Shown here piece by piece: positions 15,741 to 22,364 of a DNA stretch of 64,000 bases. Each line of letters opens with the position of its first letter. The first letter of the stretch is position 1. The notes beneath the pieces are model-generated. The model saw only the letters and a program-made list of their open reading frames with translations. It did not search any database and was not told the DNA's origin. A program made the position numbers and the translations under genes. The DNA comes from Vicinamibacteria bacterium (GTDB taxonomy: Bacteria > Acidobacteriota > Vicinamibacteria > Marinacidobacterales > Marinacidobacteraceae): contig CAXXLQ010000004.1 in assembly GCA_963668695.2 (NCBI GenBank), positions 1,664,001-1,728,000 of the forward strand, written 5' to 3'.

Positions 15741-17996
15741 TCAGCGGAGAATGTCGAACTGGCGGGTGTATTTGACCGTCAGGCTGCGATTCTGGGGACC
15801 GATCAGAACGTTGCCGAGCCCCTCGGTGTCGTTATAGACGATGAACAGGCCGGTGCCGGCGGTGTTCAACCAGTTGAGGCGAACGTTCGACGACCAGACA
15901 TCCGAATCGTCGTTGTACTGGACGAGCGCCTGGAGGTAGATCAGGGGGGTGAAGTTGAGGGCCATCCGGACCTGGGTGAGGTTCGCTATGAAGCTGCCTT
16001 CGGCGAGCTCGATGTCGTTGTGGAGCCAGGCCACCGAAGTGATCAGCCGCGTGCCCCAGCGGTAGTTGATCGTGGTGTCCACCGACCGCTGGTTCCCTGA
16101 AAGGAAACCGCCGTAGTCGAGGGCCCCGGAATAGGAGAACGGCGCGGCGCGGTTCGTGTTCCAGCGCCAGCCGAGCTGCCAGTGCTCGTAGGCGCCGGGA
16201 GGGACCACGATGCCCTCCCGAATCTCGAAGGGCTCCTGGAGCCCTTCCGCAACGCGGTTCATCGCCGGGCTGAGGTGAGCGCCGTTCTCGAAATCAATAT
16301 GGCTGTCGACGTGCAGCCGGCTCGTCTCCAGGAATCCGTCGAGGGTGCGGAAACCGGTGTAGGTGACGTGCGGCCGCAGTTCCCGGAGAGGGATGGGAAA
16401 CCTCTTGAGGAAAGCCGGGCGGTAGTAGCCGAAGTAGCCGTAGTCGTAGTTGCGGTAGGCATTCCGGCGCAGGAAGCCGACCTCGGGGTTGAAGTTGGCG
16501 GCCACCTCGGTCATCCCGAACCAGAGGCGGAGATCCCGGCGGAAGTACTCGCCCCGGCCCATGTAGGCGTACTCCCCGCCGTCCAGAAGCTCGTAGCCCG
16601 GTGTCTCAGTGCGGGCCGCGAACCCGGTGAAAGTGAGCGTTTCTCCGATGCCGAGCCGGCCTTCCACGCCCCAGGTCCGGTTCCAGTCGTCGTCGAGAGC
16701 GGAACTCCCGGTTCCCATTCGGTTCACGAACATGGTGCCGAGGGAGGAGCGTTGGCCGAACTCGCGGCTCAGGCTCATCACCGTGTAGTTGTTGGCGGGG
16801 ATCACCCCGGCGACTTGCTGGGTCTGCATGTTCAAGAAGCCCAGGTTGTAGTCCCCGGCCTTCCCCGAGAGCCGAGCGCCGCCGAGAATCGGTACCGGGA
16901 CCCCGCCGGGTCCGATCCCGATCCGGCGGCTGAAGAAGAGATCCACCGAACTCCCCTGGCCCATGGAGAAATTGCCGGCGTTTTCGAGGAAGAACGGCCG
17001 CTTCTCGGGGAAGAAGAGGTTGAAGCGAGTCAGGTTGATCTGCTGATCGTCCACCTCCACCTGGGCGAAGTCGGTGTTGTAGGTGAGGTCCACGTTCAGG
17101 CTCGGGGTCAGGCCTACCTTGGCGTCCACTCCGAAGTCAGTGTTCGTGTTTGTCTCGACTTCGACCGCATAGTCGCGGCCGGCGGCGCCCAGCGCATAGG
17201 GGGTGATCTTGAAATTCCGGGGGCTTCTCAGTTCGAGCCCGTGGAGTTCGCCCGCGGAGGAAAGCCGGTAGAGGTCGTAGATGCGGGATACCGGGGACCA
17301 GTAGTCGTCCTCGCGTTTCCTGCGGATGTTGCGGTGGAAGTTGATCCCCCAGGTCTGGGGGCTCCCGGCGTAGCGGAGGGTGCGCAGCGGAATTGCAAAC
17401 TCGGCGGACCAGCCCTCGTCGGTCATCGCAGTCGCCACCCTCCAGCTCGCGTCCCAGTTCACGTTGAAACCGCCCCCGGAGCCGGTGCCGGCGCGCCGCA
17501 TCCCTGGACCGCCGCCGCCACCGCCACTGCCGCCGCCGGCGTTGCTCAACTGGCCGTCGTACTCGAGCCCGGCCGGGGTGGTCCCGAAGACGAAGCCGTT
17601 CTGGAGGTCGTGATAGGTGTCGAAGACGACCCGGAACGAATCCGAGTCGGTCAGGCCGGAATCGCGCCGGGCGTCGCTGGCGATGATCCCGTCCGGGTCG
17701 CTGTCGTAGAGCATGGCCCCGATGTAGACCGCATCGTCGTCGAAAAGGATCCTGACTTCGGTCCGTTCGGTGGCGGGCTGCCCCTCGAAGGGATCCGCCT
17801 GGACGAAGTCCGTCAGCGCTTCCGCGGCCGCCCAGACGTCCTCGTCCAGGCGGCCGTCGATGGCCGGTGCCTCGAGCGTTGGCGAGGCCCGTCCGATGCG
17901 GACTCCGCTGGCGGATTCATCTTCGGCCCCCGTGCCGGACCCGGCCGCGAGGAGCAGGGCGCCGAGGGCGAACAAGGGTAGAACCGGATACCGCAT
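15741..17996 (-). CDS. DUF5916 / CBM9-like domain outer-membrane protein
   Basis: Signal peptide; IDGRLDE; NTDFAQVEVD...NLTRFNLFFPEKRPFFLE; LFFSRRIG. Confidence 0.9.
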   Translation of the reverse strand: MRYPVLPLFALGALLLAAGSGTGAEDESASGVRIGRASPTLEAPAIDGRLDEDVWAAAEALTDFVQADPFEGQPATERTEVRILFDDDAVYIGAMLYDSDPDGIIASDARRDSGLTDSDSFRVVFDTYHDLQNGFVFGTTPAGLEYDGQLSNAGGGSGGGGGGPGMRRAGTGSGGGFNVNWDASWRVATAMTDEGWSAEFAIPLRTLRYAGSPQTWGINFHRNIRRKREDDYWSPVSRIYDLYRLSSAGELHGLELRSPRNFKITPYALGAAGRDYAVEVETNTNTDFGVDAKVGLTPSLNVDLTYNTDFAQVEVDDQQINLTRFNLFFPEKRPFFLENAGNFSMGQGSSVDLFFSRRIGIGPGGVPVPILGGARLSGKAGDYNLGFLNMQTQQVAGVIPANNYTVMSLSREFGQRSSLGTMFVNRMGTGSSALDDDWNRTWGVEGRLGIGETLTFTGFAARTETPGYELLDGGEYAYMGRGEYFRRDLRLWFGMTEVAANFNPEVGFLRRNAYRNYDYGYFGYYRPAFLKRFPIPLRELRPHVTYTGFRTLDGFLETSRLHVDSHIDFENGAHLSPAMNRVAEGLQEPFEIREGIVVPPGAYEHWQLGWRWNTNRAAPFSYSGALDYGGFLSGNQRSVDTTINYRWGTRLITSVAWLHNDIELAEGSFIANLTQVRMALNFTPLIYLQALVQYNDDSDVWSSNVRLNWLNTAGTGLFIVYNDTEGLGNVLIGPQNRSLTVKYTRQFDILR

Positions 17997-18036
17997 AAGC
18001 GCGCAAATTTACTTCGCTGGAGCGCCCGGCGCACCT

Positions 18037-18822
18037 TTAACAGCCGGTGGTGAAACCCACGTGAGCGCCGAGGCCGGTGAGGCGCCCGGCTGACAAGGCG
18101 CGTGAGGGAGGAATACCGGGTGTATTTCGACCGAAACGCAACGCAGAACGCAGCGAAGCGGAGTGGTGAACAGCTTGTGGTGGAACCCCCGTGAGCGCCG
18201 AGGCCGGCGAGGCCCAGTTCTCCCGGTGGGGCCAGTCCTCCCGGTGGGGGCCCGGTTGACAAGGCGCGTGAGGGAGGAGCCCCCACCGGGAGAACTGGCC
18301 CGGGTGTATTCCGACCGAAACGCAACGATGAGCGGCGCGAAGCGACGCGGTGAACAGCCGGTGGTGGAACCCCCGTGAGCGCCGAGGCCAGTGAGGCCCA
18401 GTTCTCCCGGTGGGGCCAGTCCTCCCGGTGGGGGCCCGGCTGACAAGGCGGGTGAGGGAGGAGCCCCCACCGGGAGAACTGGCCCGGGTGTATTCCGACC
18501 GAAACGCAACGATGAGCGGCGCGAAGCGACGCGGTTCAGCCGGGATGGATCGCCGGCCGAGCCCCCACCGGGAGAACTGGGCCGCGTGGGTTTCATCACC
18601 GGTTGTTTGGCCGGGATGGATCGCCGGCCGAGCCCCCACCGGGAGAACTGGGCCGCGTGGGTTTCATCACCGGTTGTTTGGCCGGGATGGATCGCCGGCC
18701 GAGCCCCCACCGGGAGAACTGGGCCGCGTGGGTTTCATCACCGGTTGTTGGGCCGGGATGGATCGCCGGTCGAGCCCCCACCGGGAGAACTGGGCCGCGT
18801 GGGTTTTGCCACAGGCTGTTCA
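18037..18822 (+). mobile_element. Nested composite MITE: three left-end modules followed by four 71-bp right-end modules
   Basis: TTAA-CAGCCGGTGGTGAAACCC at the left; left ends at 18041, 18171 and 18355; 71-nt period at 18539, 18610, 18681 and 18752; ends GGGTTTTGCCACAGGCTGTTCA. Confidence 0.8.
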
Positions 18823-18986
18823 GGAATGTGGGGCGTTTCCACCCGTGAGAACGCCGCGAAGCGACCAGCAAAAGGCGATGGAAATCGCGCCGGAGCGGCG
18901 CCCCGCAGCCGAAAATGGCGGGTGCTCCATGGCATAGTTCGCGCGCCGCCGGCTCTGGCCCGGAGGGAGAGGAGATTCTTCAGGAT

Positions 18987-19766
18987 ATGAACGACAGGGC
19001 ACCGGCCAGCACCCGCGAACTGCTTGACTTCGCCACCGAGATCGCCTGGGAGGCCGGGCGTCTCATCATGCGCCACTTTCAGGTCGGAGTGGGCGTTTCC
19101 ACGAAGCCGGACCGCACTCCGGTCACCGAGGCGGACATTGCCGGCGAAAGGCTGCTCCGGAAGCGGATCGAGGCGAAGTTTCCCGGCCACCGCATCCTCG
19201 GGGAGGAGGACGGCGAGTCCGGTTCCGATCCGACGCACCGCTGGATTCTCGATCCCATCGACGGCACGACGTCGTTCGTTCATGGCGTGCCCCTGTTCGG
19301 CATGCTGATCGGCCTCGAGATCGCGGGCGAGGCGGTGGTGGGGGTCTGCAACATCGCCGGACTCGGCGAAATGGTCACCGGCGCCCGCGGCGAGGGAGCC
19401 TTCTGGAACGGGCGGCCGGCACGCGTCTCCAGCGTGACCGAAATCGGAAACGCCCTTGCCACCACCACCGACCCGGCGACGATCGGTCCCATCTGGGAGG
19501 CGGTCGGCGCGAAGGGTGCGGTCCGCCGCACCTGGGGTGACGCCTTCGGCCACGCGCTGGTCTGTACGGGCCGTTCCGAGATCGGCCTCGATCCGGAGAT
19601 GAAACCCTGGGATTCGAGCCCCTTCCTGCCCATCCTCGAGGAGGCTGGCGGCCGCTTCACCGACTGGGACGGTAACCGCACGATCCACGGGCCGAACGCG
19701 CTGAGCACGAACGGCGCCCTCCACGACGAGGTCCTGGAGTTACTCGCTGAAGTCCACGGGACGTAG
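18987..19766 (+). CDS. Inositol monophosphatase family protein (HisN-like histidinol-phosphatase)
   Basis: PVTEAD, GEE, WILDPIDGT, WD...EAGG motifs. Confidence 0.9.
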   Translation: MNDRAPASTRELLDFATEIAWEAGRLIMRHFQVGVGVSTKPDRTPVTEADIAGERLLRKRIEAKFPGHRILGEEDGESGSDPTHRWILDPIDGTTSFVHGVPLFGMLIGLEIAGEAVVGVCNIAGLGEMVTGARGEGAFWNGRPARVSSVTEIGNALATTTDPATIGPIWEAVGAKGAVRRTWGDAFGHALVCTGRSEIGLDPEMKPWDSSPFLPILEEAGGRFTDWDGNRTIHGPNALSTNGALHDEVLELLAEVHGT

Positions 19767-19835
19767 TAGGGACCGCCGGCCAGTTCTCCCGGTGGGGGCC
19801 TTCAGACCGGCACCGCCCGCCAGCGGCGGGCGAAT
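19764..19835 (+). repeat. GTAG-headed REP-like element carrying an 18-nt oligo insert
   Basis: gtagggaccgccggcc[agttctcccggtggggcc]ttcagaccggca; similar copy at 56967-57045. Confidence 0.65.
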
Positions 19836-19910
19836 GCGCTGCTCCTGAACCCGCGACTTGCAGCAGCGAGATCGCGTACTGCCATCGGTCCTGACCGCGG
19901 AGCTGCGCTA

Positions 19911-21362
19911 TCACGCGGCGATGCATTGCATGATCCTCTTGGTTTCGACGCGAAGCAGCAGTTCGTCGTTCTGCGTGATCGGCCTTCCATGAATCGTGTC
20001 GAGGCGGACTGGTTGCAAGCGCTGGAACGACTCGCGGACACTCTCCGGACGGCCAAAGAACGATCTGAACACCTGTTCCCAGTTGTCTCGCTCACATACG
20101 ACTAGCGCGCAGTCATTGACGTCGGCATAGGCAATCAGGGGGCACGAACGCCCAGCGAACCGACCTGCCGCCTCCTGCTTCGATGTCCACTCGTCATACT
20201 TGTGATCGGGAAGCTGGTGCTGTGGCCAGTCTGGGCCAAACGCTCGGTTCATTTTGCTGTCGATGAAGCGACGCACTTGGCTCTCGAGGCCCTGAAGCCA
20301 TTCGTGGGCCTCGCGGGTGCGGGAGAGGACTTCTGCCTCGTGGGCGGGTTGCGCCGCGGATTGCGGCGGCTCGTAGGTGTCGACCAGGGAAGGAGGTTCG
20401 GATTGAATCGTGGTCGCTGCGGCCTCGCGAAAGGCCGGGGCGGGCATGTCGGTGAGATCCATGTCGAAACCGAGGTCGGCGTAGAACTCTGCGCGAGCAC
20501 TGAGGTCGGTCCAGATTTCGTCTGGCCACGCGATTGCATCGCGCCAATCGCCGAGGCTTGTACGGAGAGTGTTTGCAACGGCAGGCTCGAAGCCCGCCTC
20601 ATGGGCGATGAGTTCGCCGATACTTTGCAAGCTCAACAAACGCTGGACGGAGCCGAGTTCGTTGCCGACGTTGAGCCAAGGGCTCTTGATGGACTCGATG
20701 ACGCGTTCCAGTTCGGTGGTTCCGCCCCATAGCTGGGTAGTGGTCTGCAACTCCGCAATCAGCCTCGAAATCTCCGCCGAGGCCGGAAGGCGGAACTGTT
20801 CGTTGTAGTTGGCCAGCCACTGCTGGGTGAGGCTGAGTTCGTGGCAGAAGCTGGTATCGAAGACCCCCGCACGCTGGAGCTCGTCGAGCGGACTCTCGAG
20901 TGCGCGCAGGAGCTGGCGATTGCTGCCAAGGACGCGGAGAGATCGTTCGGCGGTTCGGAGTTGATCGCAAAGAGCCACGTTGTGTTCGATGATCCGGAAC
21001 GCCCAAGCAGCGCTGGCGGAGATGTTCTGCATTTCTCTGGCCGTGCGGGCAGCTTCCCGAATTACTTCGACTTGGTGTGGGGTGATCTGCTCTATGCGCG
21101 ATGCTGCGTCGATCTCAGCCTGGCGGATCTGCCAGGTCTGCTGCAGGTTGAGCCAAAACTGTGCGGTTGTGTCGAAATAGCGACCTAGGCGAAGGGCGGT
21201 GTCGGCGGTAATGCCGCGGTCGCCGTTCAGGATCGCGGTAACTCGATTAGCTGGTACACCAATCGCTTTCGCCAACGCCCTGGCCGAGAGACCGAGGTCG
21301 TTGAGTTCCTCGCGAAGGATCTCGCCCGGATGAACGGGGGCCATGCCGCTCTTGATGGTCAT
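19911..21362 (-). CDS. higA: HigA antitoxin (HTH) fused to a helical region and a C-terminal Swt1-like HEPN domain
   Basis: PVHPGEILREE...ITADTALRLGRYF..TAQFWLNLQ (HigA); C-terminal LESQVRRFI...GPDW...DNWEQVF...RLDTIH (RxxxxH). Confidence 0.85.
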   Translation of the reverse strand: MTIKSGMAPVHPGEILREELNDLGLSARALAKAIGVPANRVTAILNGDRGITADTALRLGRYFDTTAQFWLNLQQTWQIRQAEIDAASRIEQITPHQVEVIREAARTAREMQNISASAAWAFRIIEHNVALCDQLRTAERSLRVLGSNRQLLRALESPLDELQRAGVFDTSFCHELSLTQQWLANYNEQFRLPASAEISRLIAELQTTTQLWGGTTELERVIESIKSPWLNVGNELGSVQRLLSLQSIGELIAHEAGFEPAVANTLRTSLGDWRDAIAWPDEIWTDLSARAEFYADLGFDMDLTDMPAPAFREAAATTIQSEPPSLVDTYEPPQSAAQPAHEAEVLSRTREAHEWLQGLESQVRRFIDSKMNRAFGPDWPQHQLPDHKYDEWTSKQEAAGRFAGRSCPLIAYADVNDCALVVCERDNWEQVFRSFFGRPESVRESFQRLQPVRLDTIHGRPITQNDELLLRVETKRIMQCIAA

Positions 21363-21378
21363 GTTCGCTGGGCCTCCC

Positions 21379-21657
21379 TCAATGGTAGTCGGCGATCTCT
21401 ACGTCAAATGGACCGTCGTCGGCCCATTTGAAACAGATGCGCCATTGGGCGTTGATCCTGATGCTGTACTGCCCGGTACGATCTCCGCTGAGCCCCTCCA
21501 GCCGGTTGCCTGACAGGCCGGCCAGATCGCGCAAAGCGTCCGCGCTGTTGAGGATGGTCAGCCGACGTGTGGCTTGCCTTTCGAACGCCTGAAACCGCGC
21601 CACACCGGTACCCTCGAAGAATCGCCTAGTGTCCTTGTCCTTGAAGCTTCGGATCAT
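21379..21657 (-). CDS. higB: HigB toxin (RelE/ParE superfamily, plasmid-killer type)
   Basis: MIRSFKDK...GNRLEGLSGDRTGQYSIRINAQWRICFKW...VEIADYH; toxin gene lies upstream of the antitoxin gene. Confidence 0.95.
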   Translation of the reverse strand: MIRSFKDKDTRRFFEGTGVARFQAFERQATRRLTILNSADALRDLAGLSGNRLEGLSGDRTGQYSIRINAQWRICFKWADDGPFDVEIADYH

Positions 21658-21678
21658 GCAGGTCGCGGAGCACAGGAG

Positions 21679-21700
21679 TTATGCGTTACGTAAAGCATAA
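21679..21700. promoter_or_regulatory. Palindromic operator upstream of higB (putative HigA site)
   Basis: TTATGC-G-TTACGTAA-A-GCATAA, a 22-bp near-perfect palindrome 21 nt upstream of the higB ATG. Confidence 0.7.
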
Positions 21701-21885
21701 CATATCTCGTGACGATGGTTGACTCGATGCCGGTGCATGGTGTCTCTTCATGCGCCGAATTGGACCCTTCGCTCTACTTATCATCCCCAATTGATCCCTC
21801 GCGGAGGCTTCTCTCACCCGTCCACTGGCCGGGACGTGGCACCCGAGTGAGTCTTCCGTTCGCGGCTGGTCGTCAGCGCGCCGCT

Positions 21886-22072
21886 CTAACAGCCTGTGGT
21901 GAAACCCATGTGAGCGCCGAGGCCGGTGAGGCGCCCGGCTGACAAGGCGCGTGAGGGAGGAATACCGGGTGTATTTCGACCGAAACGCAACGCAGAACGC
22001 AGCGAAGCGGAGTGGTTCAGCCGGGATGGATCGCCGGTCGAACGCCGCGTGGGTTTTGCCACAGGCTGTTAA
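21886..22072 (+). mobile_element. Minimal 187-bp MITE lacking 18-nt inserts
   Basis: CTAA-CAGCCTGTGGTGAAACCCA ... TGGGTTTTGCCACAGGCTG-TTAA; ~25-bp imperfect TIRs. Confidence 0.8.
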
Positions 22073-22364
22073 CCCGCGCCACCACGTCCCGGACCTGATC
22101 CGCGAATCCCCGCGCGTTTCTCCATCACCTCCGCCTCGTCGAGTGTGGTGATCTCGCCGTCGCGCACCACGGTCCGTCCGTTCACCAGCACCGTCCGGAT
22201 ATCGCTGCCAGGGTCACGTACACGAGGTGGGAATACGGACGGTTGAGCGGGGTCATTCCGGCCCGTCGGGTCTCCACCAGCACGATGTCGGCCATCTTGC
22301 GCACTTCGAGGGAGCCGATGTGGTCCTGCTGGTTGAGCACCCGGGCGCCGCTGATGGTGGCCAT
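22073..22364 (-). pseudogene. Degenerate duplicate of the 3' end of the amidohydrolase gene at 23775-25202
   Basis: MATISGARVLN...IGSLEV..ADIVLVETRRAGMTP...PYSHLVYVT, then a frameshift into GSDIRTVLVNG...EITTLDEAEVMEK. Confidence 0.85.

Follow-up and report, generated by a model that had tools for sequence, protein, structure and literature searches.

A higB-linked HigA antitoxin that continues into a helical domain and a Swt1-type HEPN domain

In the toxin-antitoxin (TA) pairs GraTA and HigBA, known from solved complexes (6f8s, 6f8h, 4mct, 7csv), the toxin gene comes first and is followed by that of a HigA antitoxin of ~95-105 amino acids (aa). The PD-lambda-2 system of E. coli (Vassallo et al. 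2022, PMC9519451) combines a HigB-like protein with a HigA helix-turn-helix (HTH) domain fused to a peptidase, and defends by abortive infection (Abi). In the part of that paper on which we draw, the fusion is toxic by itself, the HigB-like protein relieves this toxicity, and defence needs a third gene that is related to a P4 antitoxin. Here we describe a locus in a stretch of 64,000 nucleotides (nt), referred to as the window, from a Vicinamibacteria bacterium (assembly GCA_963668695.2, contig CAXXLQ010000004.1, positions 1,664,001 to 1,728,000), in which a higB gene is followed by a HigA-type antitoxin gene that runs on through a helical middle domain into a Swt1-type HEPN domain. We favour, with moderate confidence, the view that the locus was acquired horizontally and is a self-repressed abortive-infection module with two RNases, derived from a TA pair.

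The locus shares with GraTA and HigBA a 92-aa HigB ending in DYH, the order of the genes with the toxin first, a palindrome upstream, and a HigA that matches in both sequence and fold. Where the canonical HigA ends, however, the protein encoded here continues for 385 aa into an effector-type protein. The likeness to PD-lambda-2 is one of arrangement, with a HigB-like first gene and then a gene in which a HigA-type Xre HTH leads into a C-terminal domain of effector type. The fused part is a peptidase in PD-lambda-2, whereas here it is a helical domain of ~240 aa plus the HEPN domain, with no Pfam peptidase; moreover the third gene of PD-lambda-2, as that system is set out in the part of the paper used here, has no counterpart in the inserted segment that carries the locus, nor one that is conserved among the fused loci. 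The replacement of the peptidase and the lack of a conserved third gene set the module apart from PD-lambda-2, to which it does not belong, and it is no plain HigBA pair either. No protein of the window was matched by the PADLOC models for PD-lambda-2. The HigA part of one related locus (L025) gave a weak match to PD-Lambda-2_B (17.8 bits), reflecting the common HTH. The initial annotation of this DNA had proposed a candidate undescribed system. This holds only in part, as the design of HigB plus a HigA-effector protein is already known with a peptidase, and the HEPN family has been named by NCBI.

Other HEPN proteins are also comparable in part. Free-standing Swt1-HEPN proteins of ~380-440 aa align over the full length of the middle and HEPN domains at 38-48% identity, with the same LGDWR and Arg-x4-His (Rx4H) motifs; they differ in having no HTH and no conserved neighbour, in keeping Rx4H without exception (192/192), and in lying mostly in defence islands or on plasmids. 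The HEPN domains of AbiF/AbiD and yeast Swt1 (8vz6, 4pqz) are only 10-12% identical in sequence. AbiF is held by a non-coding RNA according to the title of its PDB entry; no Rfam family was found within the window, and with it no hint of an AbiF-like RNA. In the 2013 survey of HEPN domains (PMC3710099) the yeast Swt1 domain is characterised as inactive and joined to PIN, and HEPN domains are said often to be combined with other RNases. Many fusions are given there for the Swt1-like group, and in the part of the survey used here Xre/HigA is not among them. The HEPN-MNT TA modules and the paREP1 proteins, in which a ribbon-helix-helix (RHH) domain is joined to HEPN, likewise place HEPN in TA-like modules with a fused DNA-binding domain of antitoxin type; as they are presented in the part of PMC2701414 consulted, they differ in belonging to another HEPN family, in their RHH fold and in having no partner of the RelE family. 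Lastly, the PADLOC model PDC-M34B matches the HEPN domain of the window protein (27 bits) and 8/8 further family proteins that were scanned. The PDC-M34B models span 147-192 positions, corresponding to the HEPN domain only, and leave HigB, for which no PADLOC model gave a match, uncovered. We found no mention of PDC-M34 in the full texts searched.

The two genes, their domains and the likely operator

The upstream gene has the properties of a canonical higB, as had been claimed at the outset. Residues 4-85 of its product match the Pfam family PF05015 (HigB-like_toxin) at 53.9 bits, compared with a cut-off of 27, and among solved structures the product is closest to GraT from the GraTA complex (6f8s_B, E 1.7e-23, aa 2-92). 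The protein aligns from end to end with P. vulgaris HigB (4mct_B), and both terminate with DYH. We take this D-Y-H end of the P. vulgaris protein to be its C-terminal catalytic region. From these similarities HigB is predicted to be toxic and to cleave mRNA in a ribosome-dependent manner.

The downstream gene is a single open reading frame (ORF) of 483 aa on the minus strand, with no stop codon from the HTH through to the C-terminus, again in agreement with the initial annotation. Residues 7-83 match the NCBIfam equivalog model TIGR02607 (antidote_HigA) at 96.4 bits against a cut-off of 47.7. In a profile search of the PDB sequences the matches were confined to antitoxins of the HigA type (3trb at 3e-32, P. 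aeruginosa HigA and GraA), and in PHROGs the matches were restricted to the HigA and HigB parts. The fusion protein was modelled with AlphaFold2 using an alignment of 40 sequences. The model is all-helical, as expected from the sequence that follows the HTH, with a mean pLDDT of 85.3 and a pTM of 0.77, regions of low confidence being limited to residues 1-7, 87-89 and 337-341, i.e. to the N-terminus and the two linkers between domains. Comparison of the whole model with the PDB by Foldseek gave significant matches to HigA/Xre structures only (3trb_A, E 2e-6, TMt 0.89). Thus the N-terminal part has the sequence match at equivalog level, the Xre HTH fold, the position directly downstream of higB and the upstream palindrome of a HigA. 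It is not the small, single-domain protein of ~95-105 aa that HigA usually is, and because of the 385-aa C-terminal extension the fusion protein contains a HigA domain yet is not a plain HigA. By homology this domain would bind and neutralise HigB, and would also bind the operator.

At the other end of the protein, residues 356-468 match PF18731 (HEPN_Swt1) at 32.2 bits, above the gathering score of 27.5. The same family matches all 40 members of alignment A1 at E<=1e-3, with a best value of 5e-11, and this, the helical-bundle fold and a motif of the form Rx4-6H identify a Swt1-like HEPN domain at the C-terminus as had been proposed. The motif is R453-L-D-T-I-H458. It had been placed at the very end of the domain; the motif itself is present, but a further 25 residues follow it. 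D455 is invariant, while R453 and H458 are each kept in >=90% of 40 sequences. The HEPN domain of the fusion protein is therefore a predicted RNase, which would be expected to work as a dimer with a composite active site.

The middle domain contains the most strictly conserved residues of the entire fusion protein. These are LGDWR (270-274), W279, R290, Y294 and the GF pair at 298-299. The domain has no match in Pfam, NCBIfam or the PDB sequences and no usable match in the ESM Atlas, and no row of the Foldseek comparison of the full model with the PDB covers aa ~99-340. Descent from a duplicated HEPN domain was considered and rejected at the level of sequence profiles (hhalign probability 0.13%).

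An imperfect palindrome lies just upstream of higB. The initial annotation had noted a palindromic operator of 22 bp at 21679-21700; the palindrome is indeed upstream, but its extent is 24 bp, from 21678 to 21701. Its arms (21678-21689 and 21690-21701) are complementary at 11/12 positions. The core TTAC-N4-TTACGTAA-N4-GTAA is kept at equal distance in six related loci (L001, L002, L003, L004, L011 and L013), and the sequence flanking it differs among the six. The motif derived for the palindrome, TTAYNNNTTACGTAANNNRTAA, occurs once in the window, and none of 100 shuffled sequences (0/100) reached one match. This degenerate pattern has a single occurrence in the 4.1-Mb genome, where a reversed control pattern has 0 matches. 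A palindrome that is conserved upstream of the genes and unique in the genome is what would be expected of an autoregulatory operator of HigA, and HigA probably binds it. A promoter scan of 19700-22100 revealed no sigma-70-like site, such a scan being uninformative for this organism.

Table 1. Positions of the module, its parts and associated elements in the window, and of a recurrent gene trio in other loci (the latter in coordinates of each locus)
Feature	Position	Strand	Remarks
Fusion gene (HigA HTH + helical middle domain + Swt1-type HEPN)	19911-21362	-	single 483-aa ORF
HigA (Xre HTH) antitoxin/repressor domain	21069-21362	-	aa 1-98
Conserved helical middle domain	20343-21068	-	aa ~99-340; AlphaFold2 helices, invariant columns
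Swt1/AbiF-type HEPN domain	19914-20342	-	aa ~341-483
Codons of R453-L-D-T-I-H458, HEPN Rx4H motif	19989-20006	-	read from sequence
Spacer between higB and fusion gene	21363-21378	-	16 nt; GGGAGG ribosome-binding site ahead of the fusion ATG
higB (GraT-like, predicted ribosome-dependent mRNase toxin)	21379-21657	-	92 aa, C-terminal DYH; PF05015
Imperfect palindrome, likely HigA operator	21678-21701	.	24 bp; its end is 21 nt 5' of the higB ATG
Inserted segment without counterpart in close relatives	19835-22359	.	~2.5 kb
REP-like genome-wide repeat unit beside the insertion	19768-19834	.	~67 bp
MITE-like repeat	21887-22072	.	~187 bp; ~22-bp terminal inverted repeats
Amidohydrolase gene 3' fragment inside the insertion	22075-22359	-	Amidohydro_1 match
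Loci of the trio (RAMA/SeqA_N-like protein, Swt1-HEPN, Lit-like peptidase)	L029:3522-6104; L094:2044-4584; L007:3382-5068; L009:3893-6024

Conservation of the fusion, of its linkage to higB and of the HEPN motif

The open frame is found in independent sequence data. All or part of the stretch is contained in 20 public runs from 8 studies. In run X3 a DNA contig of 2,102 nt spans 19792-21800 with one substitution and no gaps, and in run X8, from another study, the stretch is covered by two contigs. No indels are listed for the X3 and X8 contigs, and none of the 19 listed substitutions creates a stop codon. A stop after the HTH had been named beforehand as the observation that would overturn the fusion; these contigs contain none. 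A contig of 583 nt from a metatranscriptome (library X16, 20849-21431) runs from the last part of higB across the spacer and the HigA domain into the beginning of the middle domain. It fits with co-transcription of the two genes, although carry-over of DNA is possible in such libraries.

Homologous proteins were collected by a word-indexed search that gave 259 matches among 8,000 scored candidates, and of these the best 120 were considered. Within that set 74 contain an HTH family of Pfam and almost all of these are 463-516 aa long, while the remainder are proteins of ~400 aa without an HTH that align to aa ~100-483 at ~38-48% identity. In a FastTree phylogeny of the shared region (263 rows) fusions of the window type fall into one clade of 74 leaves, 70 of which are fused. 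Three of the four unfused leaves are short and probably truncated, and the fourth is a protein of 394 aa. Altogether ~70 protein clusters share the fusion, with identities down to ~40%, and the fusion is thus of long standing. The ratio dN/dS between fused genes, calculated by the method of Nei and Gojobori, is 0.08-0.25 for the HigA domain, 0.17-0.32 for the middle domain and 0.10-0.42 for the HEPN domain; values well below 1 in all three parts indicate that each is under purifying selection.

One fused protein (P0074, from locus L012) is located elsewhere in the tree and carries a different HigA-like HTH (HTH_3, 30.9 bits), so that it represents a second, independent fusion. Six-frame translation of the sequence upstream of it gave a sub-threshold HigB-like match (24.6 bits against 27, profile positions 41-91) with one internal TGA, which by our own calculation maps just ahead of the fusion gene; no Pfam match to HigB was obtained for the upstream fragments.

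Linkage to higB was analysed in 12 other loci of the window-type clade, nine taken from contigs of a collection with one genome per species and three from metagenomes. An intact higB of 92 aa lies directly upstream in 9/12 (L001, L002, L003, L004, L011, L013, L081, L082 and L083), recognised by Pfam in the first six and by tblastn and the presence of an ORF in the metagenomic loci. L003 and L082 are near-identical (dS 0.02-0.06) and L081 looks the same, and hence there are ~7 independent lineages with an intact higB. When the immediate neighbours on the same strand were clustered, HigB was the sole family common to many loci (7 members), and no neighbour besides higB is conserved across all the fused loci. 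Both the fusion of a HigBA antitoxin to a Swt1-like HEPN domain with its Rx4H motif and the association with higB, on which the initial annotation was built, are therefore conserved in other genomes.

In the remaining three loci higB is damaged. L025 and L028 have a common internal deletion in higB, together with a change of the motif His to Ile; their fusion ORFs encode 503-507 aa with dN/dS of 0.22-0.40. L017, from the metagenome-assembled genome (MAG) of a gammaproteobacterium, has one open frame HigB'-HigA'-middle-HEPN (L017:3773-5350) in which Rx4H is kept. The higB remnant has no start, there is a stop just upstream, its last eight residues are gone, and HigA has lost its first ~39 residues. 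The persistence of an open fusion ORF beside a damaged higB indicates that the fusion protein has some life without active HigB. We note that some acidobacterial relatives have a conserved gene of 347-377 aa on the same strand, ~100 nt 3' of the fusion (L001:5546-6589, L003:5057-6190, L081:2162-3295, L082:4073-5137); it has no match in Pfam or PADLOC and is absent from the insertion in the window, and L003, L081 and L082 are probably one lineage.

The HEPN motif was surveyed in 268 sequences, comprising the window protein and 267 that were retrieved, with fused and unfused members distinguished by a phmmer search for the HigA domain, which is found in 74/268. Rx4H is kept in 256/263 family sequences that cover this region. 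All of the unfused relatives covering the motif retain it (192/192), compared with 64/71 of those that are fused; R and/or H has been lost in the other 7/71, in ~5 independent events. The altered motifs are HLDTMH (P0002), HHDTMY (P0004), RRDTLL (P0053), SQDTLY (P0079), Rx4M (P0068) and Rx4I (P0069 and P0071). Conservation of RxxxxH, one of the points on which the original proposal had been staked, thus applies to the window protein and to the great majority of the family, but not to every fused relative. It follows that the HEPN domain can be non-catalytic in this architecture, and that catalysis is not universally required. Kin are not independent, but the contrast with the unfused proteins is clear, and indicates that in some lineages catalysis by the HEPN domain has become less necessary after its fusion to HigA.

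The inserted segment and the free-standing relatives

The module lies in a segment that is missing from close relatives. In three of these (G025, G026 and G027) the protein of the right flank is 98% identical, and the distance to the left flank, for which we used the inositol monophosphatase gene, is ~200-390 bp compared with 2590 bp in the window. Since the flanks adjoin without the cassette in these genomes, the cassette is an insertion of ~2.5 kb. The initial annotation placed it between a repetitive extragenic palindromic (REP)-like element and a miniature inverted-repeat transposable element (MITE), and both were found. The REP-like unit is also present at the empty sites of G026 and G027, and has at least 46 matches in its own genome, from 40 scored candidates out of 767. 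For the MITE-like element there are at least 74 matches (40 of 577 candidates scored), including ~40 near full-length copies at 90-99% identity, and its positions 8-29 are also matched on the reverse strand. The insertion contains the two genes, the operator, the MITE-like repeat and the 3' fragment of an amidohydrolase gene, and no third gene. The fragment was recognised from the ORF 22182-22364 on the minus strand (Amidohydro_1, 30.9 bits, profile positions 289-329 of 345); the corresponding stretch is absent from the empty sites, and this orphan was presumably carried over from the donor locus. The flanking genes have housekeeping functions (inositol monophosphatase, amidohydrolase and oxidoreductases). 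Short repeats of these kinds are dense throughout the genome. Elsewhere in the window several repeat copies are stacked at 18000-18900 (within 17800-18950), and create long spurious ORFs.

The full-length fusion occurs in 3/28 genomes of the family. Several relatives have a plain two-gene higBA, with HigB 67-70% and HigA 61-69% identical to those of the window, and the source genome also encodes a plain higBA pair. The plain HigA proteins of G017 and G019 were considered as possible remnants of a fusion, an idea that was rejected since no HEPN remnant lies downstream. The source genome is a draft of 4.1 Mb in four contigs with an estimated contamination of 9.3%, and its nearest named relatives are acidobacterial MAGs. 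It also contains a free-standing Swt1-HEPN paralogue of 449 aa (G000:C4:3752374-3752814; L056:1471-2820, minus strand) that is 33% identical over the HEPN domain and matches PDC-M34B at 44.7 bits; a copy of the MITE lies ~2.7 kb away.

The wider family was sampled by comparing a profile of aa 100-483 and the HTH-less relatives with 1.84 billion representative proteins. At E<=1e-3 there were 2,892 clusters, of which 813 reached E<=1e-30, and most of the top 150 are 380-440 aa in length. Among 27 representatives that are longer at the N-terminus no Pfam domain besides HEPN_Swt1 was detected. Relatives are present on 19 plasmid records, and the plasmid-borne members are named 'Swt1 family HEPN domain-containing protein' by NCBI PGAP. 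In genomes, in metagenomes and on plasmids, HTH-less members are often found beside defence-type genes. These neighbours encode a type I restriction R subunit, an SNF2 helicase with a DNA methylase, DndB, a Zeta-toxin-like kinase, a ThsB-type TIR protein, Schlafen/AlbA_2, XamI and Mrr endonucleases, a Cap15 CBASS effector, an AAA_13 ATPase, an HNH protein, a Shedu nuclease and a UvrD/AAA pair. A Lit-like peptidase (Peptidase_U49) is directly downstream in L009, L029 and L094, with a PADLOC match to Lit of 55 bits in L029. A small RAMA/SeqA_N-like protein, Swt1-HEPN and the Lit-like peptidase form a recurrent trio (Table 1), which may be a separate three-gene defence arrangement. On two sphingomonad plasmids (L166 and L167) a distant Swt1-HEPN gene (~25% identity) is followed directly by that of a tyrosine recombinase.

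Some of these unfused genes are adjacent to TA genes. On the conjugative Sulfitobacter plasmid pSpoCB-3 (L162, NZ_CP072616.1 68002-70020) the order is MqsR, MqsA and Swt1-HEPN, the two junctions being a gap of 12 nt and an overlap, with mCpol and DncV-like (CBASS) genes adjoining. In L050 a gene for RelE (PF06296) is followed by one for an HTH_3 protein and then by that of the HEPN protein, and in L030 an HI1420-type antidote is followed by the HEPN protein. These loci repeat the logic of that in the window with separate genes and with different toxins of RelE/BECR type.

Possible mechanism and alternative readings

We suggest that the module was derived from a GraTA/HigBA pair, whose HigA would have become fused to a complete and normally free-standing defence-island protein of ~400 aa. 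By homology, and from the conserved and unique operator, a dimer of the HigA HTH would bind the promoter palindrome and repress both higB and the fusion gene; the same domain would bind and neutralise HigB, as in the GraTA and HigBA complexes whose structures have been solved. The ribosome-dependent RNase HigB and a second RNase, the HEPN domain, might in this way be kept in one autoregulated complex, and dimerisation through HigA may hold two HEPN domains together. On infection or some other trigger, possibly sensed by the middle domain, the complex would be remodelled or the fusion protein degraded, and by analogy with PD-lambda-2 and the HEPN Abi proteins one or both RNases would then arrest the cell. 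Restraint could operate in either direction, with HigB held by HigA as in the textbook scheme, or the HEPN fusion held by HigB as in PD-lambda-2. The genes found around the HTH-less relatives and the comparison with PD-lambda-2 make a role in defence by abortive infection plausible.

A number of observations weigh against this reading. The cassette is located among housekeeping genes and outside any defence island. The HTH-less loci have no neighbour in common, and those associated with TA genes are few among the ~110 examined. Contigs from RNA libraries are no proof of transcription. In IMG/VR none of 46 pattern matches passed tblastn, and no relative was confirmed there. No experiment or paper on a HigA-HEPN family was found in a search of full texts, supplements (which may list HTH-Swt1) lying outside that search. 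In addition, 7/71 fused relatives are without R or H compared with 0/192 of the unfused, allowing that kin are not independent, while in 3/12 loci higB is damaged and the fusion ORF still open. These exceptions (L025/L028, L017 and L001) point different ways on which partner restrains which.

An alternative, to which the loss of the motif in 7/71 fused relatives and the position among housekeeping genes lend support, is that the locus is an ordinary HigBA addiction or stress module in which HigB is the sole effector, and the middle and HEPN domains are a non-catalytic appendage with a regulatory, RNA-binding or sensor function that tunes the stability of the antitoxin or its repression. We regard this as rather unlikely. 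In its favour, inactive HEPN domains act as RNA binders (described in the part of PMC3710099 used here), the dN/dS of the HEPN domain is highest (0.40-0.42) in pairs that include members lacking the motif, and plain two-gene higBA pairs of 61-70% identity occur in relatives. A catalytic role is nevertheless indicated by the retention of both R and H in the window protein and most of its fused kin, by the invariance of D455, and by a dN/dS for the HEPN domain of 0.10-0.23, indicative of purifying selection, where both members of a pair keep the motif. Moreover the ~400-aa unit stands alone in defence islands with its motif in 192/192 sequences, which argues that the fused part is an effector protein.

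The roles might also be the reverse of those in a conventional TA pair, such that toxicity resides in the HigA-HEPN fusion while the HigB-like protein serves mainly as inhibitor or co-sensor. This is a variant of the two-RNase defence module rather than a departure from it, and we consider it improbable, less likely than the appendage described above. It has a precedent in PD-lambda-2, where, in the part of the account consulted (PMC9519451), the fusion (B) is toxic alone and the HigB-like protein (A) rescues. It is also consistent with L025/L028, where deletion of higB coincides with the change of the motif His while the ORF stays open under constraint; that coincidence, however, is a single evolutionary event. 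The converse cases speak against reversal. In L017 both R and H are retained beside a damaged higB, whereas L001, whose protein P0002 is 77% identical to that of the window, has an intact higB with the motif Arg changed to His. HigB keeps the full GraT/HigB sequence including DYH, and the existence of HTH-less relatives without any partner indicates that the HEPN protein can apparently restrain itself. An artefact of assembly, or a recent accidental read-through fusion without function, might be suspected given the draft genome and its estimated contamination, but this is already refuted and has a negligible chance of being right: contigs from two further studies contain the same open frame with no indels, the fusion is shared by ~70 clusters to ~40% identity, and dN/dS is well below 1.

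Returning to the two-RNase defence module, a broader and more tentative proposal is that TA pairs of a RelE-superfamily toxin and an HTH antitoxin (HigBA, MqsRA and RelE/Xre) have repeatedly recruited one HEPN protein of ~400 aa, with at least two fusions to HigA, and so constitute an unrecognised class of two-RNase defence system. The antitoxin would then act as scaffold and trigger-sensor, either RNase could be lost, and the middle domain with its LGDWR motif might be a new infection-sensing fold. We think it possible, while giving it clearly less weight than our reading of the individual locus.

The loci provide a natural series of variants, in which both RNases are intact, the HEPN motif is lost, higB is deleted, a higB remnant is fused in frame, or the three genes are unfused. 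The series is suited to asking which RNase kills, which component restrains which, and what the middle domain senses. In genome annotation such fusion genes are likely to be labelled simply as 'HigA family antitoxin'. If functional, the module would be a second and mechanistically different example of the principle of PD-lambda-2, with a textbook antitoxin as the carrier of an effector, and it would link the common modules of the HigBA type to the large and unstudied family of free-standing Swt1-HEPN proteins.

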